Below, in pieces: positions 1-51,222 of a stretch of DNA of 64,000 nt; the stretch's first letter is position 1; every line of letters begins with the position of its first letter. The notes below the pieces were generated by a model. The model had not been told where the DNA came from and made no database searches. It worked only from the letters and a program-made list of their open reading frames with translations. The stretch comes from Harriotta raleighana (Eukaryota), in the NCBI GenBank assembly GCA_050575255.1, contig JBNZDD010013714.1, positions 6,674,959-6,738,958 of the forward strand, read 5' to 3'. Both the position numbers and the translations under genes were made by a program.

Positions 1-879
1 CTGGGAGGCCTCATGACTAAATGGAGGGAATCAACACATTGAAGGATTTAACAGCAATCAGTGTGGCATTTGGCACAAATTCACCAGATTTTTGTCTGAA
101 TCAACCAGGATATTTAATACTGGTAAGAATACAAATGTAATGGGGGCGGGCATTTTGTTCGATTAACCTGGTGTCTGGAATTAATTGGCGTCCGCCTAAA
201 GCAGATTCCACTGTGTTGCACAGATAAAGATTGATGCACTTCCATCTATCCCATGCTTTGTTTAACTCAGATGTGTTGGTTGGTGCTTTATAAGAGTAGG
301 AGAAATTCTCCACTTCCGTGCGCTCTTCAATTTATCGTTCTCACAGATTTTTTTGAAGTCAAATTCAGTCATGTTTTCTACATGGAAGATTTTGATGTGA
401 CTTTCTACAACTTATTTATTTTTGTGACCAACAGATGGGAGTTGAAGGCTATATATGTAGCTGCTAAGCTTCACTTATTTTGAGAATACTTTGATGTTTG
501 CAACAAATCTTTTGTTTCAGAAGATGTGGTTTAAATAACTGTGTTGCTGACCATGGGCTGTTTCCTTTAACATTCATGATTGCTGTTAGATTTCTAGGTG
601 AAGAAGAGTGGTGAGTTGTTTCGGTGAATTGTTTGAATTAACTAATTTGTTTGTTCTCGTTATTTTAGGACTAATGAAGTAATGGAATACTACAGTGGAT
701 ATCCTGAAGGTTATAATGCAGAAGAATACAACTATACTTGGCCCGGTATGACTAACCATTAACCCGTCCAATTTGCTTGAATTTTTCAAAGAATAATTGT
801 ATAGAAAGTGCAAATAAAAGTACTAGGGAGTGGGAGGAGAGAAATCCCTACATTTGGTATCGCACTTTTCATGTTGGGG

Positions 880-1381: not shown

Positions 1382-1508
1382 AGAGCTACAGACCAGATGA
1401 TGGCCGTCGAGATGAGCTTTATCAGCAGTTCTATAAGGAGATAGAGGATGACTACAGTAAAGAAAAGTACGCAGATTGTGTGGTTATAGCTTTAAGCAAG
1501 CAACAAGG
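1382..1508 (+). CDS. NCOA5-like gene, internal coding exon (127 nt; earlier exons not identified, probably upstream of the window)
   Basis: Acceptor GACAG at 1377-1381, donor GTAAGT at 1509. Translates SYRPDDGRRDELYQQFYKEIEDDYSKEKYADCVVIALSKQQG, matching NCOA5 RREELYRQYFEEIQRRFDAERPVDCSVIVVNKQTK as recalled. Confidence 0.88.
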
Positions 1509-1662
1509 GTAAGTATTTCCAAGGGTATTTCTTTTAATTTATTTCATACGTATATGGTCATAGTTTGATACATGCAGCTTCCTATCATGCAGAGGATGGT
1601 TGCAGCAATTTGTATGACTATAGTTCTGAAATTTAGTTTTGATGTAAAAACAATTCTTTATA

Positions 1663-2469
1663 CAGTAAATGCCCATTTATCCGGCACCCGCGGGACCTGG
1701 CCAATGCCGGTTAAACAGTTTACCGTACCATGTAAATAATAGACTAAATACACTACAACACAACAAAATTGCATTTATAAAGCATCTTTCACATCGGGAG
1801 GACGTCCCAAAGCACTGAACAATCAGGTCGGGACCCGAGCGGTGGGGGGGGGGCGTTGGGGTTGGGGGAAGGAGAGAGGGAAGAGTTAATGGTCGAAGAG
1901 GAAGGTCTTGAGACCGGCCTTGAAGGAGGAAAGGAAGGAAGCAAGATGGGAGGGGCTGCGGGATGGAGTTCCACAGTGTGGGAGCAGAGAGACTGAAAGC
2001 CTGGCCGCCGATGGTTGGGCGGTTAGGGCGGTGGACACGGAGCAGGCCTGAGTCTGCTGAACAGAGGGGGCGGGCAGACTGATAGACAGCAGGTTAGAGA
2101 GATAGGTGGGGGCAAGGCCGTGAATGGCCTTGAAGTTGAAGACGAGGAATAATAACACTAATAACAGGTACTGTAATAACAGAATATTGTATTGGTACTT
2201 TATTATTTATACTTCTGCAATGGAGGGGAAAAAAAAGGCAGCGCGACTTTTAAAAAAAAACAGCAGGCTTTACTAGACGAATTAACTGTACATTCGGCTT
2301 GCCATTAATAGAGTCTACCGTTTTTTTAATGCGCCACCGCATTCATTGAATGCGCCACCGCTATTGTGCCGGATAACTTCTGGTTAATTGGGTGGGGACT
2401 TTTTTTTTTGACGTGCCGGTTATACGGAAGTTCCAGTTAATCGAGTTACCGATACACAGGCTTTTACTG
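1663..2469. mobile_element. Tc1/mariner (pogo/Tigger-type) MITE carrying a nested L2 fragment
   Basis: TIRs CAGTAAATGCCCATTTATCCGG / CCGATACACAGGCTTTTACTG with TA on both sides. Same family as 61365-62252, in the opposite orientation. Confidence 0.8.
1756..2150 (-). mobile_element. L2 LINE 3' fragment inserted in the MITE
   Basis: Minus ORF FKAIHGLAPTYLSNLL...SFKAGLKTFLF is typical of the L2 ORF2 C-terminus. (TTG)n-type tail; approximate TSD AATA(A)CACTA. Confidence 0.85.
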
Positions 2470-2581
2470 TACATAACTGTTTGTGTTGTCATTGAAACAT
2501 CTGTGAGATATTAATATTGATTAGATTTATATTTGTTGCTGATCTAAATAACCATATGTATCCTATGTTTTGTATTTTAAG

Positions 2582-2781
2582 GGATTATGCCAAACTAGTA
2601 GGACGACGAGTGCAAGAACTGGGGCTTCTTGTTGACCTTATGTATCTTAAATTGGAGTTAGCACTTGAAGCTGCTTTGAAAGATGTTAAAGAAGAAGGTT
2701 CGCCATTTTGTGTTGTTATTAGTGCAGAACATCAGACTCTATCATCGTGCACAGTGATCATCCTGTGTGGTGGCCACAAAG
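2582..2781 (+). CDS. NCOA5-like gene, coding exon (200 nt), anticodon-binding-like domain
   Basis: Acceptor TTTTAAG, donor GTATGT, phase compatible with the previous exon. DYAKLVGRRVQELGLLVDLMYL...GSPFCVVISAEHQTLSSCTVIILCG aligns to NCOA5 DYAESVGRKVRDLGMVVDLIFL...GSPFAIVITQQHQIHRSCTVNIMFG. Confidence 0.92.
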
Positions 2782-2932
2782 GTATGTTTGTTTCCGTATA
2801 GAAAACATAGAGCATTTCATAAACATATACTGCCAGTAATTCATTTTGTTCAATTTATATTTTCCTTGAAAGTTTATATAAAATAAATAAATTTGCCACT
2901 TAGAGATTTGCAAGGCAGTTGGTCCTATTTCG

Positions 2933-3228
2933 GGAGTCCTGTAGCTCTGTAGTTAGAGCACTCACCTTACAAGTGATAGACCTGGGTTCAATTCCAGGCA
3001 GAGTGAAACCTCAGTCTAGTTTCCATACTCCACATACTTAATAATAATCCCTCAAAATTGGTCATTTCAATCCACGACTGTTTGTGGGACACTGCAGTGC
3101 GCAATTTGCTGCCGCGTTTCGCCCATGTATATACAGTCAATTCACTTTACAGTATATTCTGTGAAGTGCTTTGAGATGTCTAGAACACGTGAAAAGTGCT
3201 ATATCAAATGTGAGGATTATTATTATTA
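2933..3228 (+). mobile_element. tRNA-derived SINE, full length
   Basis: Box A TAGCTCTGTAG and box B GGTTCAATTCC, body GGTCATTTCAATCCACGACTGTTTGTGGGACAC, L2-like tail and (ATT)n. Near-identical to 52063-52355. Confidence 0.88.
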
Positions 3229-3463
3229 CTTGTTCTGGTGTCTGGCTGTAGGAAAACAGATTTTATAGATAGACTTCTATTTCTGCTTTGCTTTACATTG
3301 ATGGTGACATCCTGGCCAAACTAATTAAAAATAAGAAATTTAAGGAATACATCTCCTTCCTACCACTTTAATGAAATGAGTCAGCACATATGATTCCATA
3401 TGTTACCCAACCTAGAAAATGGACTTCAAAGCTAGTTCTCTTTTAAGTTACTGTATCTAATAA

Positions 3464-5641
3464 TGGAGGGAACCAGTAGATGTATATTTAGATTTTAAGA
3501 AGGCATTTGATAAAGTGCCACACAAAAGGCTGTTACTCAAGATTAAGGCCCAGGGGATTAATGGGAACATATTAACATGGATAGAAGAGTGGCTACTGGA
3601 TAGAAAACAGAGAGTAGGGATAAATGGGTCATTCTCAAATTGTCACAAGGGTCAGTGCTTGGGCCTCAGCTATTTACTATTTACATCAATGATCTAGACG
3701 AGGACATTGAATGTAATGTGTCTAAATTCGCAGATGACTCTAAACTAGGTAGGAGTGAACTCTGAGGATGGTGCAAAAAGATTGCAACAAGATATAGATC
3801 AATCAATCAATCAAAATTTTATTTATAAAGCGCCTTTCACGTCGGGAGGACGTCCCAAAGCGCTGTACAGCCAAATAGGGGGGGAGGGTTCAGGGAAAGG
3901 AGTAGGAAAAATTGACTGTATATTTGTGGGCGAAACGCGGCAGCAAATTGCGCACAGCAGTGTCCCACAAACACACACAGAAATGGGGGGAAAAAATGGC
4001 AAGGGGGAGAAATGGAGGGAAAAGCGGGGTGGGGTAAAATCAGGGAAGAAAAGGGGGGGGAGAAAGGGGGACAAGGGGGAAATCAGGGAGGGCAAAGAGG
4101 GAGAAATGTTGGCAAGTGGGAAGAGGGAGGGAAGGATGGGTAGGAGGCAAAACCAGGGAGAAAGGGGGGTAAGGGGGAAGAGGGAGGAAAGGGAGAGAGG
4201 GAAGGAGAAGAACAAAAAGGGGGAAAATCAGGGGGCAGGGGGAGTTTAAACAACAACAAACAACATCAACAATAATAAACAAAAAAGTAAACAACAATCA
4301 ACAACAATAAACAAACACAACAACAACACCCAACGACTGTCCAGCCACCGCTCCCTGTCCTCGCCGCCCGCCTGGACCATCTCAAAAAAGGCGGGAACCA
4401 GGCCATCGATGGCACCGGCCGATCCCCCTCTTCCCCACTGGGACGCCGGGTGCTCCCGGCCCTCCTCCTCCCGCTCCACCGCACACATCAGTCATCCGCC
4501 CAGGCCCGTGTCCTCGATTCTCAGGCCAATGACCTCGCCACTCAGGCCTGTGTCCCCGCTGCTCCAGCTCCACGGCCGCCGGTCCCTGGGTCGAGTCACC
4601 GGGCCTGTGCGGCTCCGGCTCAGCCACAGTCCGACTCCATACTCGACTCCCATCTCTAGCTCCAGCCGCAGCCCAGGCCAGGCCGAGCCGGCCCCCTGCT
4701 CCCAGCCGGGGATGGCAACTCCCGTGGTGTGCGACCGACCGACCCCCGAGCCCCCCGCAGACACACGGGGCGCAGCCCAGCTTCCCGCGCTCGCGACTGG
4801 GACCCCCTCTGGGGGAGTGGGAAAGTAGGTGGCAGATGGAATTTAATGTGGGGAAGTGTGAAATTATTCACCTAGGCAGCAAAAATAAAATAATAGATTA
4901 TTTTCTGGAGGGGGGAGAGATTAGATAGTGTTAGTATTCAAAGGGATTTGGGTGTTCTTGTGCACCAGTCTCAAAAAGTTAGTTTTCAGGTGCAGCAAAC
5001 AACTAAGAAGGCTAGCATTTGTTTCAAAATGTTTATAGAGTACAAGAGTAGGGAAGTCTAGCTGCAACTGTATAGGGCTTTGGTGAGATCCCACCTAGAG
5101 TATTGTGTGCAGTTTTGGTCTCCTTATTTAAAAAAGGACATACTTGCCTTAGAGGGGTGCAGCGTAGATTCACTAGATTAGTTCCTGGGATGAGGGGACT
5201 GACCTATGACGATAGGTTGAATAAACTAGGGCTGTATTCTCTAGAGTACAGAAGAATTAGGGGGGTTCTTATTGAAACATATAAGATTATTAAAGGGCTG
5301 GATAAAGTAGACACTGAGGGACTGTTTCCCCTGGTAGGAGAATCTATAACCAGGGGTCACAGTCTTAAAATTAAGGGTCAGCCTTTTAGAACAAAGTTGA
5401 GGAAACATTTCTTCACTCAGAGGGTAGAATTCACTACCAAGAAAGCTGTAGATGCTCAGTCCTTGAACATTTTCAAGGCTGAGACTGATAGATTTTTTTT
5501 AAAATAGAGGGGTTAGGGGATATGGGGATAGGACAAGTAACTATAGTTAGGTCAGAAGATCAGCCATGATCTTATTGAATGGCGGGGCAGGTTCGAAAGG
5601 CCGAATGGCCTACTCCTGCTCCTAATTCTTATGTTCTTATG
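3464..5641 (+). mobile_element. 5'-truncated CR1 LINE (RT C-terminal half plus 3'UTR), interrupted at 3798-4808
   Basis: Decayed RT motifs [54 protein letters not shown]; 3' (TTCTTATG)n tail; frameshifts. Confidence 0.93.
3798..4800 (-). mobile_element. Chimeric non-autonomous retroposon, copy 1 (5'-truncated), nested in CR1
   Basis: Highly similar to 40956-42090. (ATTG)n tail, L2-type 3' end, SINE-derived 60-bp segment and GC-rich 5' part. It splits the CR1 reading DID|LGEW. Confidence 0.85.
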
Positions 5642-5835
5642 ATAATACCACACGCCTAATAATAATCCGTCCAAAAAAAACCACAATAATAAAATTGGTC
5701 ATTTCAATCCACGACTGTTTGTGGGACACTGCCGCGTCTTGCCCACAAATATACTTTTGTGGTATATTCTGTGAAGTGCTTTGAGACGTTGATAAGATGT
5801 GAAAAGCGCTATATCAAATGCAAGAATTATTATTA
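5642..5835 (+). mobile_element. 3' half of the tRNA-SINE family
   Basis: Body and tail match 2933-3228. Confidence 0.8.
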
Positions 5836-6069
5836 CCGCCATCACACGTATAGCATTTGTGTCCTATTGCAATGTGCTAATTTGAAGACAGAATGCTGAT
5901 AGGCGACCTTGTTTTTGGACTGCGCACAAACTTTCCTCATGGAGTGATGGGCAAATTATATCTCCCAACTATACACAGGATGTTTGTTACATTTACTGCC
6001 AAACTGTTCTCTGGGAAGCCACAATTTGAGTTGGGTCAGTTCTGAATTAGAGAATGCATTTCCTATACT

Positions 6070-6100
6070 GTGCCATCTAGTGGTCTGACAAGGAGCTGCT
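6070..6100 (-). promoter_or_regulatory. CTCF motif (reverse orientation) with upstream module
   Basis: Minus strand reads AGCAGCTCC-TTGTC-AGACCACTAGATGGCAC: the core fits CCASYAGRKGGCRS, with a U-motif-like element at 5-bp spacing. Confidence 0.55.
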
Positions 6101-6608
6101 CCATCACCAAAGTTGGATCAAAACATTATGCATGTACATCATGTTAATTCTGAATTATCATCACTCAGTTGTGAGTGGAACAATTTAGTCAATTACTTTT
6201 TGACCTGGGTCAAAGTTCAAATAATTATTTAATTTTTACGCATCACGTTCTGTATGCTGTATATATTGTTAAAATCCCTTTCAAATAATTTCATATGAAC
6301 ATAGTTTTTCTGTATTGTGCTCCTGATCAATTATGTTCAGAGATTGTACATATTTTAAAACTCTCACTCACATTCTCGGAGCTATATCAGCAACCGTTTC
6401 TGCTGCACAAATTTCAGTGTAAGTTATAGCTATGACAAAGAGACCATGCCTTTGATTTGCCTCCTTCTGCCCTGCATCCTCCCCAGTCCCAACCCCCCAT
6501 CTCAAATCTGAAACAATGACTGTCCAGCACCTAAGGTCAATCTCCTGACGTGAAAAGAGCTCTTTTTACAAGAGTAATTTTGTTCTTAATGTTGCCCTTT
6601 TTCTATAG

Positions 6609-6890
6609 AGCATCGTAATATGCCTTTGGATGATGCTTTGGACCTGATTTCTCGTGAGCACAAACGTGTTTATGGTGAACAACAAGAAAAAGAACGACTT
6701 GAGATTGCATACAAAGCAGCTAGCTTGGCTGATGATTACCTACACCGTGAATATTATGAGGAAACCCACATTGTGCCAAGCCACATTCGCCATCTTCTGT
6801 TTCTGCTGGGTGATGGAAAACATCTTTATCCTGAAGAGATGCAGAAATTAGCTGAGTACTTGGGCCAGAGAAAGGAGCAGTATGAAGCGG
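6609..6890 (+). CDS. NCOA5-like gene, coding exon (282 nt) containing the LxxLL nuclear-receptor box
   Basis: Polypyrimidine tract plus TAG at 6606-6608, donor GTTTGT at 6891. EHRNMPLDDALDLISR...EKERLEIAYKAASLADD...IRHLLFLLGDGKHLYPEE matches NCOA5 EHRNMPQADAMVLVAR...EKEREEIARQAAKMADE...IQSLINLLADNRYLTAEE. Confidence 0.92.
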
Positions 6891-8422
6891 GTTTGTGATG
6901 AAATATAATAATTATATCCACTAAATAAAAAACACTTAACTGCATTTGTAGTTGTTATCTTTAGATTAATTAATTTCAATGGGAGTGAACAGACTTGGGT
7001 CCAATTGCAAATGCACCTGTTTTTAAATGTGCCTGAGATAAAAGTTAACACATTTGCAGTTGCATCTAAATGTTTTAAGTGAACTATTTGAATTCAACCA
7101 AATGCAATTTAAAAATTTGTTTTCAATGAAGCAATGAAAACCTGATGCTTCAGGTGACATGTGATATTTAATTACAACCCAGATACACTCGCATAGAGTC
7201 TGATGTGACTGCAAGCTGGTTCCTTCTATGCAAAACTGGGTTATGGAAATCATTAAACCGGCATTCTACATATGTTTGTAAATATTGTATTTGCATTTGG
7301 TGACAAAACGTTTATATTTAAATGAGGCGAAAGGGTGAAGTTTTTGAGTTTGCATTTGTAATATTACAGAACATTGAAATGACCTAATCTAGATTTGAAT
7401 CTAAGCTAATTTTTTCAGTCAAGTACAAGGTGACTCTATTCTAACAAGCTTCAATACTGCATGCCTTGTTTATAAAATGGATTTGTTATGAGCCCTTGCA
7501 TTTATTATTGTGTAGTACTTCCACAAGAGCAGTTGGCCAGCTTTCTATGAAAGTCATGAACCTGGATGCTCTGACTGCCAAAGTCTGTTTTGAATGCTCC
7601 TACATTGTGGTGTGTTAATGTTTTGTGGATCTTGACCAGTCACAGAATGTCGGCAAGGGTGCTGCCTTACCTGGCGAGCATTACGAGATCAATAGTTAAA
7701 ACGATTAATCTACTCATATCCCACACTGGTCTCACAATGCTCGCAGGAAGATCCATAGTGGCCTATTGAGAGTGGAAAAGTTGGGTAAGCCCCCTGTAAA
7801 TCTGTAAAGTGAGCGGGGTTGAGTGAAAGTGGGAAAGTGACTTGACATAGTACATATGTGATGGTCCATTTCCATGGTAACTGGCTAGTTGTTAGACAAA
7901 CACTGATTGAAGTTTATCAAAAAGATGACAAGCCAATGATCTCGATAATTGCATTATAACAGTTTTCCCTATACTGTATTAAATACCCTTAATGAACTAA
8001 GAACGGTTTTTGAATTAAAGTGTACATGTAACATTTTCAATGGTTTTTAACTACAATTTACTCTTGTACGGTGCCTTTTATAAATGATTTACAAAATAAA
8101 ATGATTAACAATGAATGTTTTGGAGGCAAACACTGCAGCTATTGGGCACAAGTAACATGTGAGAACGATAAAATAAGTTGGCGCAGAGCAGAATTGCCAC
8201 AACAGTTTTCAGTTATTTCCATTTTGGTTTCAGGATGGAATAGCTGAAACGGAAAATGATATTGATAATGATTTCCCATTCATTGGTATGCAATTCGCTG
8301 CAAATGTTTCCTTCATACAGTTTTGATAATTACACTATACTGATCTTACTGCTCTTAATGTTATTTTATGTTGGTATAATGTGTGTATTTTATAAATATA
8401 TATGTTTTTCCGCCATTGGTAG

Positions 8423-8620
8423 GTGTTGCTGCTGCTGCTCAAGCAACTGTTGCGACTGAGAATTACTATGATCAAGGCACAGTTTCACAATGCTCAAGCA
8501 AGCCTAAACCCCTTCTCCCAACACCAAGCAGGCCACCACTTTTGGGTCAAGCACCACTTACTCAGAAAAAAGCTTCACTCTTGGGTGATCGCCCAATAAG
8601 AGCTCTTCTGCCTGTTCCAA
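8423..8620 (+). CDS. NCOA5-like gene, penultimate coding exon (198 nt), Pro/Leu-rich tail
   Basis: Acceptor TAG at 8420-8422, donor GTTAGT at 8621, phase 1/1 consistent with neighbours. Encodes VAAAAQATVATENYYDQG...KPLLPTPSRPPLLGQAPLTQKKASLLGDRPIRALLPVP. Confidence 0.75.
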
Positions 8621-9741
8621 GTTAGTATACAATTGAAGTTTTATATTAAACCAAACTTTTTAGGTAAAGGTTAATGCATTGTCAACATTTCTGAACATTA
8701 TTCAGTGTATTCAAACTTGCATGACGGTGATATTTGTGATTCCTAAGTAATGTTATTAAATCACAATTAAAGTTATTGTTTCTGTCTTTAGCATAATTAA
8801 ACAAATAAAACTGGGAATACTTATTTTCATAATTTGAGGGGAAATATAGTTCATTCTAATAAATCCTCTTTCTAATAAGTTTGAGGACTGCTGTTCTGAA
8901 TTCTGAAATTAGATTTGCAAACCGCTGGTGTGTCACATTTGTGCATTTTGTATAGCAGTTGAGAAATTATAATAAAAATCCTGTGCTTTGAGATACAAGT
9001 TTCCATTCAATAGAAAAGCATCCCAATCCTTCACTGGTGTAGAACGAAACCATTGCAGATTGACAGGTTGAATTCCCATCTTTTCTGAGTAACTGATTTT
9101 AGCGAGGCAGTAGTTAGAAAATCTAGAATTGACCTTCACATCCCTGGAGTAAAAAGCACCTATGTGCACATTGGATGTAAAAACTACCACATGTTTATCT
9201 AGCCTGGAACATTCTTTCCTCATATTTGAGCTCAACTACTGTTGAGCGCTCTGAGATGCTATCCACATATATAAATGCAGATTATTTTAAGTCAATTTAG
9301 TGTTACTGTATTATTTTCTATTTAATCATGGACTAATTAACCAAAATGGGTTGCGCTATGTGGGAAAACCATCTGCTCATTGCTAACACATGAACAAATT
9401 TGACATCACCATAATAACCCAAGAACTAAATTGCCTCTTGGTTTTCTCCATTTCCGTATGTGATTTGTGGAGATTTAAAACTATCTCTCTAATTATAATG
9501 TAATGATAATAATAATTATTTTAGCAGAACATGGGAGGAGCTTGAATGTAGGATCCTTTTGAGTGCCCGTAATTTATTTAAAAAGTTACAGGCCTGTTTT
9601 AATTTTTCTTTCTGAACTTGAGTTTTATCCTATTTTGCTTGTTGTTCACTAAGCTCTCACCTGTTGCAAAGTATAGTTGTGAACTTTATATTGGATCTCG
9701 GTGTCCTGCATAGCAAATAATTTGTATTTGTTCCAACACAG

Positions 9742-9779
9742 CTCATTTAAAGTTAGGTACTAGGCCCCAGCCACAGTAA
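9742..9779 (+). CDS. NCOA5-like gene, probable terminal coding exon (THLKLGTRPQPQ*)
   Basis: Acceptor TTTGTATTTGTTCCAACACAG ends at 9741, in phase with the previous exon. TAA at 9777-9779, followed by an AT-rich UTR-like stretch. Confidence 0.6.
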
Positions 9780-10422
9780 GCAACAGCCACATGAAATATC
9801 CGAATGCACGCTGCTTTGGAGCGGAATTTGTATGTCCAACACAACAATGTTTGAAGAGCACCACAAGTATGATGCCAAGCCAATACCACAGGACTCCTTG
9901 GTGAATTGTCACAGACTGATTTGTAGTATTTTAGTATTTAAAATAAATCCCATTGTAAAGTTCAACAATTTCTTTTTGAAGATGTATGCCCACAATTGTG
10001 TAAGGACCATTTTTGTAATTTTTAAATGCCACCGTGAATGGTTTTAAAAAGTTAGGAAAAATTCTCGTCTTGCTCTATATCTTTAGAGTTGGTTGTTTAT
10101 TATTTGATTTGTTAGATGCTCATTGATATTCCCTCCATTCTGTTTCTGAGATCCTTTTTTTTAGTAAGATTTTATTGTACGGTGATATTTTTTACAGAGT
10201 CAAGAAAAATAAGATTGCCCTCAATTGGTGTGTAAACCATGTATAATTGAAAGTTCAACAAATATCATCTTACAGTATTATCTTATCCAGATTTGTAAAA
10301 CTGTTGTTCACTTGACTGCTTTTTTGTACTGAGCATTGTAAAAGTGCTGCATTGATTTGATAAAAGCAATGTTTAGTAAATCTCAATTAAAGTAATACAA
10401 TTTATTTACTGTATTTGAAACC

Positions 10423-10428
10423 AATAAA
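10423..10428 (+). terminator. Likely polyadenylation signal of the NCOA5-like gene
   Basis: AATAAA about 640 nt after the stop, preceded by TGTA/AT-rich UTR-type sequence. Confidence 0.5.
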
Positions 10429-10861
10429 ATTTCCAGTTATTTGGAGAGGAACTCACAATGATCATTTCAGAAACCTCAGTTCTCAATATTTTGCAATGTA
10501 TTGGGGTGTTTGAAGGAAAAGGGGATGTATTCTGTATCTACTTTGCGTAATAGGTAGGTGTTTGAGCTAAATAAAAAATCCTGTGTTACTTTGCAATGGT
10601 GCTTTTATTTAAACATTGAATTCAGTTGGTGTAATCTCACACTGCAGTTGAATGAAAAGCAGTATGCTGAAGTGTTCTACCAAGTACCATTGGCATGTGC
10701 TTTTTTGGATATTAGAATTCTCCATTCTTTTCTTTTCCAAACTTGGTAGAATTGAGAGATGAGTAAAATTATTACGCTTTATAAACAATTATATTGTCTT
10801 CTAGAATTGTGACTGTATCCAAATGTATATTAGGAAACAAAATTGCATTTTTCTAGGCATT

Positions 10862-40655: not shown

Positions 40656-40955
40656 TCCTGCAGTTGTAATTGGGTCCCTGGTTAATTTTTCTTTCCCTTT
40701 CAAAGTGATGCAAAATGCCTACATTGCTGTCTTTCTAGAAATCAATCAACAAATAATGTATAGACAAACAATTGAGTCTAGGATGCTCCAGATCCGTGTG
40801 ACTAAAGTTCCGCTCTATACTGTAGTTATGCCATCGGAGGCATCGAGAAGTTTTACTTTTTGTTAACTATTTTTTACATTGCATCTTATCCTGGAATACT
40901 CCATTAAAGGGCTACATCGGTGGTGCAGATTGACATTTGAAAATGTAACGTTTAA

Positions 40956-42090
40956 CAATCAATCAATCAATCAAAATTTTATTTATAAAGCGCCTTTCAC
41001 GTCGGGAGGACGTCCCAAAGCGCTGTACAGCCAAGTATGGGGGGAGGGCTCAGGGAAAGGAGTAGGAAAAATTGACTGTATATTTGTGGGCGAAACGCGG
41101 CAGCCAAATTGCGCACAGCAGTGTCCCACAAACACACACAGAAATGGGGGAAAAAAAGGGGGGAAAAAATGGCAAGGGGGAGAAATGGAGGGAAAAACGG
41201 GGTGGGGTAAAATCAGGGAAGAAAGGGGGGGAGAACGGGGGACAAGGGGGAAATCAGGGAGGACAGAGAGGGAGAAATGTTGGTAAGGGGGGAAGAGGGA
41301 GGGAAGGGTGGGTAGGAGGCAAAACCAGGGAGAAAGGGGGGGAAGGGGGAAGAGGGAGGAAAGGGAGAGGGAAGGAGAAGAATAAAAAGGAAGAAAAATC
41401 AGGGGGCGGGGGGGGGGGAGTTTAAACAACAACAAACATCATCAACAATAATAAACAAAAAAGTAAATAACAATCAACGATAATAAACAAACTCAACAAC
41501 AATAGAAAACACAACAACAACAATTAACGACTGTCCAGCCACCGCTCCCTGTCCTCGCCGCCCGCCCGGACCAACTCCAAAAAGGCGGGAACCAGGTCCT
41601 CGATGGCAATGGCCGATCCCTCTCCTCTTCCCCACTGGGATGCTGGGTGCGCTCCCGGCCCTCCTCCTCCTCCTCCCGCTCCACCGCACACATCCATCAT
41701 CCGCCCAGGCCCGTGTCCTCGACTTTCAGGCCAATGACCCCGCCACTCAGGCCTGTGTCCCCGCCGCTCCAGCTCCTCGGCCGCCGGTCCCTGGGTCAAG
41801 TCACCGGGCCTGTGCGGCTCCGGCTCAGCCACAGTCCGACTCCATCCTCGACTCCCATCTCTAGCTCCAGCCGCAGCCCAGGCCAGGCCGAGCCGGCCCC
41901 CTGCTCCCAGCCGGGGAGTGGGAGTCAGATGGTAACTCCCGTGGCGTGCAGAAGGAGCCGACCGACCCCCGAGCCCCCCGCAGACACACGGGGCACAGCC
42001 CAGCTTCCCGCACTCGCGACTGGCGATCATGGTGATGGTATTGGCGGCGGCGGCTCCTAACCCTCCTGTGCCACCGCCACCATCTTGGAT
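40956..42090 (-). mobile_element. Chimeric non-autonomous retroposon, copy 2 (probably full length)
   Basis: Colinear with 3798-4800 plus about 65 extra 5' bases beginning ATCCAAGATGGTGGCGG on the minus strand. Confidence 0.85.
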
Positions 42091-42259
42091 GACAACAAAT
42101 TATTTATGTAGGGTTTTAGCATGTAGAAATATCTCAATTGCTTCCCTCAAGCAGTATCAATTTTTGTTACAATTAGTGTAATACTGTAACAGTAAAGTTC
42201 CATAACTAACTTCCAGTTGAATGGCCAATTGATATTTTTGTTCATTTTGATTTTAAAAA

Positions 42260-48427: not shown

Positions 48428-51222
48428 TACTTATATGTTCATTTGTATGGTTAATCGCTAAAAGGCAACATCTGCATGGAAGAAATATTAAAATACCTGA
48501 TAACCTCAAGCACATCTGCCTGACCTCAATAACTGGAAAATTAATCATTATGAGCAAGCCAAATGGAAGAGTATGGAAAGGAAGAGTGGAAGTAACCTAA
48601 TAACTCATAGCCACTATAACACAGAAGGTTAAAATCTTATCTGACCTAATAGACATTATTATTTGCCAATACTTTTAAAAGGCCTTTGACAAAGTAACAC
48701 ATGAGAGACAAGTTTACAAATTGGTATCAATGCAAATTAATAATTGGCTATAGGGAAGGATTCATGCCTATTCCAATACATACAGCTGCTCCATTCAAAT
48801 GTCATTCAGGAATTGCTATAGTTTTATGTTACATTATGTTATGTCCAATATATGTTGATAGCCATTTTATAGCTTGGGATGTTATCCAATTTTATATTTA
48901 CAAAATAAGGTTCCATAATAATAACAAATCGACGTCTATAGTTTATTGGTTGAGTATATATCTGGCAACTTAATTATTTGGATAACAACTCACACCATGG
49001 CAACTTTTTACATAGTATTGTTACACAGGAATCAGTCACTATACGTCAGAAGACACTGCATGAAGCAAGAGAATACAATGTTAGACTGCATATATTATTG
49101 CCGCAGTACCACATTGTTCAGGAAGCATAGCAGACGATTGCAGATGAGAGTAAATTAATTAAACCAGTCATTTTTAAATAGGCCAGAGTTCTCATTTAAA
49201 TGATCTAACCTCTTAATAAAGTAGAAAAGAACAGCTGATCCCAGTTGTACCAGATTGTAATATCCCCCAATGTTCACAGTGCTACCCATTTCATCATTGG
49301 AAAATAGTATATCAGTGAAAAATTAACTCTTCAAGTGTTGTTGGCTTTGAACGTACAGAATTTGTAAACATTACAGATAAATTTTGCCACAAATTAAGCT
49401 TCAGCTTTGTCAGCTCCCCCCCCTTCTCTCCTCCCCACCTCCCTTCCCATCCCTCAAACACACTCACGGGTGTCCAACTTAATGTAAAAACTTCCCTATT
49501 TGTGCATGTACTGGGATGTGTCAATACTTTATATCTTAAAGGAGGACGGTTATTGTTTTCACAAGGGAAAGAGACCAGAAGTCCATAGTGTGACATTTAC
49601 CACCACATAGTGTGCTAGTGTTGCCCTGTTGTTTTCATAAAGTGAATGATGTCATGGTTTATGAGCCAGGAAGGAGAAGGCTTTCCAAGGAATCCTTCCA
49701 GGCACCCATTCCCTTTATATGCATTAATAGTGGTGGGTTGTACATTCAGGGACCACATTTTCCTGTTTAATTGTTTTGCATAGTGTGCAGATAGGAAGCA
49801 CAGAAAATGATTTGCCATTTTCTACAGATTCAATGATGTATTTCAGGCTTGTTTTTTAGTGCTGTTAGTAGTGTTATAGTATTAATGTAGAAGGTAAGCT
49901 ATTAGTCAAGATAACACTGCGCATATTGCAAAAGTATCAGAATTAATTATAATTGGCATACTAGAATTTTAGAAAAGGTAATAGAGAATTTAAAAATAAA
50001 ATTTGTCTGGTCTTGTCATTCAGTTGATGTGATCAGTGAGGGAGAATTAAATTGGTTCTTGTAAGTTTTATTTATATTTGATGGAACTTCCATACATCTT
50101 ACATAGTTATTGTTTGTTGACACTGTTGAAAATTAATCCCATTGAAAGTTTTCACACATATGGAGTTCTTGGCATTTGATACAATCAACTGTCAAAGTCA
50201 GACAAATGACAGCTCAAGAAGGTCATAAAGGTCGGAGCTCCAGGAGGTCAAAAGCAGATAACAATGTACAAGTTGGAAAGTCGCTGAATCTTATTGTTCT
50301 AAAACACAGCAAGCCCTTTTCTTTATAATCCTGTAAAATTCTATAACCCCGGAAATATGTTTAGTGCATATTTACCAGAATATAATTTGTTGATTGTTTG
50401 ATGTGTGACTGTTTTTCGTAAAACCTGACTTGCACTTGTAATAAATATGTTTCAACATTTTATATGAATGTAACTTTATTGTTAGTATATTGAATTAATA
50501 AATGAGATGCACTGCACTTGTAACATAACTGAGAAATATATTCAATTGTATGGTTATTATAAATTATGTAAGATGTAGGAAATTAGAATTCTTCATGTCA
50601 AGGCAGGTTATAGCATAGATAGTTTGAATCTTGTACAGTTGTATGAATACAAATTCTTGATTTGATTAACAATCACAAACTGATTGCATTCAGTTGAATG
50701 CAGTTTCTTCAATAAAATAATGTGCTAAATGTAATTTCCCAATAAAAATAATTAAACTTCAATATATTATCCTGTTTGATCTTAATCTAAAAATTGGCAG
50801 GGTTTAATGTTTATTTTTGAGGGGCGATGATCCAGGATTTAGCTGAACCCAAACTGAATATGTCAATCTTTTTTTAAAAAGCATTTTTTGAACACTTCAA
50901 ATAGCTATATGTTGTTACAAGTGATGTTTCACTATATCTTTTCAATGATCCACATCTTAAATTTCTGTTTGTTATCTGCAAACATTTTTGATTGAAATAT
51001 AATTTCGTTGACTTTGACATTTTATTTGCAAGAGTTATTTGTAATTGCACTGTTGATTTCTGTTCTAGGACTGGGTTGGAGAATATTTCAATATACTTTT
51101 TACAAGCATGCCATATTATTTATTTAATTTGTGTGCTTCAATATTAATAATACTATCTTATTTTCTTAAATCTTTCCACACTATAATCTCACGCATTATG
51201 GTATATTCTGCTTCATCAGCAG

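Follow-up and report, generated by a model that had tools for sequence, protein, structure and literature searches.

We describe a gene located at the start of a 64,000-nucleotide stretch of the Harriotta raleighana genome (hereafter the window; contig JBNZDD010013714.1 of assembly GCA_050575255.1, positions 6,674,959 to 6,738,958 of the forward strand) that is very probably an ohnologue of NCOA5. This origin, i.e., a second NCOA5 family member derived from vertebrate genome duplication, had been put forward in the original prediction and is borne out by the gene tree, by shared introns and by three flanking pairs of paralogues. Two other suppositions of that prediction have to be given up: the gene was thought not to be known from mammals, yet 15 mammalian proteins nest in the same clade; and it was thought to have been retained in this lineage, yet its orthologues extend from chimaeras and sharks to frogs, turtles, marsupials and carnivores. 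The encoded protein combines an NCOA5-type core with a C-terminal tail of two-leucine motifs, which might dock on RNA-recognition motif (RRM) domains of splicing regulators.

Gene structure and protein architecture

The gene has eight coding exons, which total 1044 nucleotides and specify a protein of 347 amino acids with a single terminal stop, and all seven introns are of the GT-AG type. The five exons predicted originally, exons 4 to 8 of the present model, stand in their coordinates, phase and GT-AG ends, but the set was incomplete: one more coding exon lies inside the window and another two before its start. Exon 1, with the ATG (G000:C13714:6673393-6673451), and exon 2 (G000:C13714:6674064-6674126) precede the window; the remainder lie on its plus strand. 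Exon 3 (669..745) encodes a Tyr-rich acidic N-terminal region; exon 4 (1382..1508) a helix (residues 73-93) and the first strand of an anticodon-binding-like domain; exon 5 (2582..2781) the body of this domain, with 49% identity to the matching exon of the canonical NCOA5 gene on contig C13721 of the same genome; exon 6 (6609..6890) the end of the domain, a long helix and a helical region with an LxxLL box; and exon 7 (8423..8620) a short poly-Ala run followed by a disordered Pro/Leu motif tail. The last exon contributes its coding part and the stop codon (9742..9779), and the 3' untranslated region (9780..10600) is covered by the contigs that cover this exon. It contains AATAAA at 9942, 10423 and 10570, and its end at 10600 is the edge of the compared stretch rather than a mapped transcript end. 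A cassette exon at 8234-8285 (52 nucleotides, AG/GT-bounded, with an open acidic frame) was rejected, as it would bring in an in-frame stop and no support for it was seen.

Splice support comes from 4 of 11 listed runs, representing two studies, whose contigs derive from a related organism and are presumed to be RNA, none of the listed runs covering the stretch being recorded as such. The transcript-like contigs of all four runs join 745/1382, 1508/2582, 2781/6609 and 8620/9742, i.e., four of the five junctions in the window. The fifth, 6890/8423, is not among the joints listed (523 further joints are unlisted), and contig pieces end at 6892 and restart at 8427, flanking the poly-Ala run; we accept this junction because the gene is collinear here with the predicted Callorhinchus milii protein P0001. 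A single exon on its own retrieved this 353-residue protein at 98% identity (E 3.9e-51), which marks the source genome as that of a chimaera close to C. milii. The poly-Ala run (8425-8445) is six residues longer in C. milii; at this position sharks and rays show an acidic stretch that contains Trp.

The gene is under purifying selection. The window protein differs from P0001 at nine aligned positions, besides the six extra Ala of the latter, and all six exonic changes among the 40 of 262 substitutions listed are synonymous. Across the three core exons (480 non-synonymous and 129 synonymous sites, calculated by hand), 6+6+10 = 22 nucleotide differences in the runs stand beside three amino-acid changes relative to P0001, giving a pN of 0.006, a pS of 0.15 and a ratio of ~0.04, a rough figure that presupposes runs from the same species as P0001. 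Supported junctions and a ratio far from 1 are hence what the data return for a gene whose reality had been made to depend on both.

The core of the protein is 47% identical over 194 columns to the canonical NCOA5 of its own genome and 44% to vole NCOA5, in keeping with the far-diverged NCOA5 homology originally claimed. Membership in the family is established by the anticodon-binding-like domain, which phmmer matches to the human NCOA5 domain structure (PDB 1V95) with E 6.8e-32; going by this value and that of the C. milii protein, chance sequence resemblance to NCOA5 is ruled out. The same structure is the best fold match in Foldseek (E 3.2e-11, rmsd 1.4 A, 106 columns, 49% identity), followed by domains of class IIa synthetases (His/Thr/Gly/Pro-tRNA synthetase) at 9-22% identity, and a structure search of the Atlas returned only the same family and synthetase domains. 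Pfam PF03129 (HGTP_anticodon) matches at E 5.7e-4 and 20.4 bits, just below the cut-off of 21. Scans of single exons gave no Pfam match for the four NCOA5-like exons, and only whole proteins scored. A structure model, built for P0001 from a 60-row alignment, predicts a disordered Tyr-rich acidic head (1-65), a helix, the anticodon-binding-like domain (about 97-190), a long helix, a helix (233-243) with the LxxLL box, one more helix and a tail that is likely disordered (pLDDT about 50). The box (IRHLLFLL; 6785..6808, plus strand) aligns with the LxxLL motif of canonical NCOA5, and its strict form occurs in 34 of 39 orthologues (15/15 mammals), in four of eight canonical rows and in five of seven invertebrate rows.

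NCOA5 (also known as CIA) and the invertebrate Neosin share with the window gene the anticodon-binding-like domain, the long helix, the LxxLL-type box and three intron positions. Unlike them, the paralogue lacks an RRM and the canonical C-terminal motif, has few RD/RE dipeptides, and carries an acidic head rich in Tyr and a tail of LLPTP and LLGxxP words. The canonical hallmarks, namely an RD/RE-rich N-terminal repeat, an RRM outside mammals and a conserved C-terminal motif, are all missing from the window gene. An RRM match was obtained for none of the 39 paralogue rows, as against four of seven other canonical rows and five of seven invertebrate rows, and RD/RE dipeptides number 1-4 in the paralogue versus 10-36 in canonical rows. 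A tblastn search around the gene with five proteins of the canonical type found no remnant of an RRM. As originally noted, the C-terminus is also shorter and different, with 79 unrelated residues in the window protein against about 200-340 in full-length canonical ones.

Origin of the duplication

Two genome searches each yielded two NCOA5-type loci, the window gene and a gene at 6.20 Mb of C13721 (G000:C13721:6215907-6200253, minus strand), and the window gene is accordingly not the sole NCOA5 of its genome. In the second gene, RRM exons (Pfam RRM_1) are accompanied by an RD/RE region and the canonical C-terminus, and its core is 77% identical to vole NCOA5. The chimaera canonical protein keeps the N-terminal RRM, as do those of fish, frog and invertebrates, and two rodent canonical rows have no RRM match; on these sequences, mammalian NCOA5 seems to have lost its RRM separately from the paralogue. 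Three core introns are common to the two chimaera loci in both position and phase, which indicates that the copy was made at the DNA level.

A tree of 57 rows and 193 columns, chosen for taxon spread from about 330 proteins, groups the window gene with copies of sharks and rays within a clade of 39 rows (100/100). Branching in this clade mirrors the species tree, from bichir, gar and teleosts by way of coelacanth, amphibians and reptiles to 15 mammals (99/96). The C13721 gene groups with canonical NCOA5 (96/95), the window gene falls outside that group, and a branch (100/97) separates the seven invertebrate rows from all others. As both clades include cartilaginous and bony vertebrates, with the invertebrates apart, the duplication would have occurred after the divergence of amphioxus and before the split of sharks and bony fishes. 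In approximately unbiased (AU) tests on a 26-row subset, a grouping of both chimaera genes as one clade was rejected (p 2.5e-5), as was an origin by mammalian retrocopying (p 3e-46).

The two loci also share flanking paralogues. On C13721, NCOA5 and an SLC12 gene are arranged tail to tail, and an EF-hand gene and a sorting nexin with PX and TPR domains are close by. The only paralogue of the nexin is on C13714, at a distance of 360 kb from the window gene; FN2 repeats, with 16 matches on eight contigs, form clusters on both C13721 (5.88-5.90 Mb) and C13714 (4.47 Mb); and SLC12 copies are found on C13721, C13714 and two further contigs. From their domains and the human gene order, we take these to be SNX21/SNX20, MMP9/MMP2 and SLC12A5/SLC12A4, with TNNC2 as the EF-hand gene. 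Compared with the SLC12 exon next to NCOA5, a copy on C13705 is 93% identical and the one on C13714 is 83% identical. Lamb 2021 (PMC8040251) assigns SLC12A6, A4, A5 and A7 to paralogon 10 and equates the ((A,B),(C,D)) split with the first round; its set leaves out two-member families, and NCOA5 is not in the part of its supplement examined. With this order, the SLC12 identities would have the two blocks, and with them the NCOA5 pair, part at the first genome doubling, which we consider probable in preference to the second.

Two points tell against this history. A paralogue clade confined to gnathostomes is not rejected (AU p 0.109), so that the tree alone gives no date for the split; and adjacency to ZNF423 is seen in this genome alone, orthology elsewhere resting on the tree. 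Hagfish P0204 (Eptatretus) falls on the paralogue stem without firm support (91/83) and combines a paralogue-like box with the canonical C-terminal motif and RD repeats. It is only 34% identical in the core to P0219 of another hagfish (Myxine), and judging from the sequences the two may be different paralogues; the lamprey is represented by P0210 (Petromyzon).

The motif tail and its predicted partners

Exon 7 encodes three two-leucine motifs, all on the plus strand. The first, KPLLPTP (8506..8526), is a predicted docking motif that matches six of seven residues of the SETD2 stretch contacting RRM2 of hnRNP L. It is followed by PLLGQAP (8536..8556), which loosely resembles the PTB-interaction (PRI) motif, and by SLLGDRP (8575..8595), which fits the strict PRI consensus [S/G][I/L]LGxxP with a charged residue at position 6; its position 1 is Pro in close relatives. 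LLPTP recurs in 36 of 39 orthologue tails (70 copies; 0.27 rows expected by shuffling) and in none of 17 canonical, cyclostome and invertebrate rows, and in wider sets the figures are 164/195 for the paralogue versus 1/79. LLGxxP is found in 33 of the 39 tails (2.4 expected) versus 2 of the 17 other rows. As these patterns were picked after viewing the sequences and the rows are related, the counts measure conservation and not independent events. The chimaera tail (79 residues) is the shortest among the full-length members seen, and those of bony vertebrates carry up to five LLPTP copies.

In SETD2, according to the hnRNP L study (10.1101/2021.05.22.445248), the stretch contacting hnRNP L RRM2 terminates in K-V-LLPTP; binding requires the Leu pair, a 13-mer binds at 12.4 uM, and the peptide does not bind PTB. 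The paralogue resembles it in the LLPTP word, a Lys two places before the Leu pair and the disordered setting, and differs in that SETD2 is a methyltransferase tethered to Pol II, with affinity dependent on flanks, whereas the paralogue motif is often repeated and its docking is a prediction. Raver1 motifs of the form [S/G][I/L]LGxxP bind the same face of RRM2 in PTB (PMC3420021). The paralogue resembles the PRI proteins Raver1, Raver2 and Matrin3 in its Pro-rich C-terminal tail with several LLGxxP words; the Raver proteins, however, have RRMs of their own, and most paralogue motifs miss consensus position 1 or have a polar position 6. Given K-P-LLPTP on the one hand and a lone strict PRI match with Arg at position 6 on the other, hnRNP L is the better bet as a partner of the window protein and PTB the weaker. 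A search of this genome for a whole hnRNP L/PTB RRM2 returned no match, and the same search was matchless in control genomes too; the tail has no meaningful sequence match in the PDB.

We posit that after the duplication the window copy may have lost the RNA-binding module of its own and acquired repeated motifs with two leucines. The tail would bind hnRNP L/LL, perhaps also the PTB family, at the back face of RRM2, with RNA contact then supplied in trans by hnRNP L/PTB, i.e., with RNA binding being borrowed. The acidic anticodon-binding-like core and its helical extension would keep NCOA5-type protein contacts, either with nuclear receptors or with transcription complexes, and the protein would act as a nuclear adaptor linking transcription to splice-site choice. 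By analogy with SETD2 and Raver1, we assign a probability of roughly 0.4 to such an adaptor that recruits hnRNP L/LL, and perhaps PTB, via its tail. That a first-round ohnologue traded its RRM for a multivalent RRM-docking array, forming a vertebrate-wide bridge from NCOA5-type transcription complexes to hnRNP L/PTB that was overlooked and was lost separately in birds and in the human/mouse line, is a proposal that, taken whole, we regard as doubtful. If true, it would be a clear case of a duplicate in which short docking motifs have replaced a folded RNA-binding domain, and would furnish a new co-factor of two major splicing regulators in dogs, cats and opossums, though probably not in humans. 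The tail motifs offer a cheap and direct functional test.

Several observations weigh against the adaptor. The strict PRI consensus is limited to the window protein and 14 of the 39 orthologues, and a polar residue at position 6 cuts PTB binding 7-fold in the Raver1 study (PMC3420021), which applies to the best match of the window. LLPTP is absent from some orthologues (Pimephales, Talpa) and single in the chimaera tail; it is a short word that includes a site for TP kinases and could be recognised by a different reader. N-terminal flanking residues raise the affinity of SETD2 (10.1101/2021.05.22.445248). The LxxLL box, which lies in a confidently folded helix of the model and is strict in only four of eight canonical rows, may be structural. 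No binding, localisation or expression data were found for any orthologue.

Alternatively, the same ohnologue could be a plain second nuclear-receptor co-regulator, with a tail that is a generic Pro-rich activation region or a phospho-regulated one, a reading we entertain tentatively. Human NCOA5 is described as a co-regulator of ER, RVR and LXR with LxxLL and corepressor motifs (PMC5746116), the box is kept in most orthologues and in every mammal of the tree, and TP sites recur in the tail. Nevertheless, the exact LLPTP and LLGxxP words have been kept and multiplied over about 450 million years and the spacers have not, both words match ligands of one RRM subfamily, and the box may, on the model, be buried. 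A reading of the tail as an FBXW7 degron was also rejected, as the pattern given in PMC8955265 is missing from the window protein, which speaks against a phospho-regulated tail.

Direct RNA binding by the anticodon-binding-like domain, making the protein a stand-alone tRNA- or stem-loop-binding protein, appears improbable to us. The synthetase domains that follow 1V95 among the fold matches and the HGTP_anticodon hit would suit it, as would the RRM of ancestral members, which makes the family RNA-linked. Against this, only ~100 residues align to the synthetases, at the low identity given above, the Pfam score stays just under its cut-off, the aminoacyl-tRNA synthetase catalytic domain is absent, and the domain is net acidic (10 K+R versus 15 D+E in the window protein; 7-10 versus 12-15 in the six paralogue rows listed). 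Finally, a chimaera-specific duplicate, a retrocopy, a decaying pseudogene or a sole NCOA5 of the genome is scarcely credible, as the plain RefSeq name of the C. milii protein and the faster evolution of the window copy relative to canonical NCOA5 are outweighed by the canonical gene on C13721, the shared introns, the AU rejections, the open 347-codon frame, the spliced contigs and the wholly synonymous listed exonic changes.

Distribution, nomenclature and genomic neighbourhood

Occurrence in mammals was surveyed with a turtle protein as query (best 120 of 222 matches) and in a second listing (best 120 of 266). The first includes platypus, echidna, four marsupials, tamandua, mole, desman, shrew, alpaca, pangolin and many carnivorans, and armadillo, camel and partial whale models were also found; the mammalian predicted orthologues, with full-length ones in monotremes, marsupials, xenarthrans, insectivores, camelids, pangolins and carnivorans, are mostly 380-530 residues long. 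No bird, primate, rodent, lagomorph, bat, ruminant or afrothere appears in the best 120 of either listing. For birds this is a fair hint of absence, since alligator and turtles head the list; for the placental groups it is a weak one, since placentals stand at its bottom and 102 matches lie beyond those listed. The view in the original prediction that mammals are not known to have an NCOA5-like gene beside ZNF423 may hold for human and mouse only.

The paralogue goes by 'nuclear receptor coactivator 5-like', si:ch211-216l23.2 in fish and LOC100145527 in Xenopus; these automatic annotations refer to the same gene, as all fall in one clade with the same core and tail. The RefSeq label of the C. 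milii protein is plain 'nuclear receptor coactivator 5', and many shark, chimaera and teleost paralogue proteins carry this plain name, a likely source of mis-assignment. Studies of liver cancer, metabolism and fish sex determination treat NCOA5 as single-copy; most groups of jawed vertebrates have two genes, and data from fish and sharks can be credited to the wrong one. The target of a carp siRNA (PMC9275722) reads, by eye, as the canonical gene. Two teleost gene models (P0017, P0079) fuse the paralogue with a RING-SPRY (RSPRY1-like) protein, a hint that the two genes adjoin in those fish.

The paralogue is annotated in databases, which limits the surprise, but it is unstudied, and what is new is its changed architecture and the testable docking idea. 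As had been surmised, it is apparently uncharacterised: we found no functional paper, only a one-sentence mention in a preprint, and no paper joining ncoa5 with znf423, in a search outside which most subscription journals lay. A putative human pseudogene, NCOA5LP at 16q12.1, has no match in the same literature. It was sought in supplements without success: none of nine searched files of PMC6886504 has it, PMC10176861 and PMC12822150 have only NCOA5 itself, and the supplement of PMC13437121 has no NCOA5.

Upstream of the window gene, CNEP1R1 (PF09771) lies on the opposite strand, head to head, 8 kb from the ATG. The sole CpG-rich block between the two (G000:C13714:6665001-6666000) could be a shared bidirectional promoter. 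Also upstream on the opposite strand is a gene with HEAT/SYO1 repeats, which from gene order we take to be HEATR3, and another upstream frame on that strand is presumably TENT4B. Downstream, as predicted, lies ZNF423 on the same strand; its first coding exon (19952..19991, plus) falls within a CpG island (19043-20042), and an open frame at 51069..51455 (plus) holds a further exon with a C2H2-like finger. The gene owes its name to a zinc-finger exon 8 kb past the window, the seven best Atlas matches of which are ZNF423, with ZNF521 next. A third contig, C13716, holds the closest paralogue of ZNF423 and has no NCOA5 match.

Between canonical NCOA5 and its troponin C-like neighbour on C13721 sits a single 575-residue frame of the TRIM type (RING, B-box, coiled coil and PRY-SPRY; L016:3398-5122, minus strand). 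FN2 exons repeated on both strands, together with duplicated frames a few kb from one another (G000:C13721:5882597-5898531; L006:7736-9604; L023-L024), suggest local or assembly duplications. Within the window gene, the intron at 2782-6608 contains repeats resembling SINEs and LINEs, on which contigs pile up very deeply, and a GC-rich element at 4250-4830 recurs at 41487-42060, in the stretch 40867-42099.

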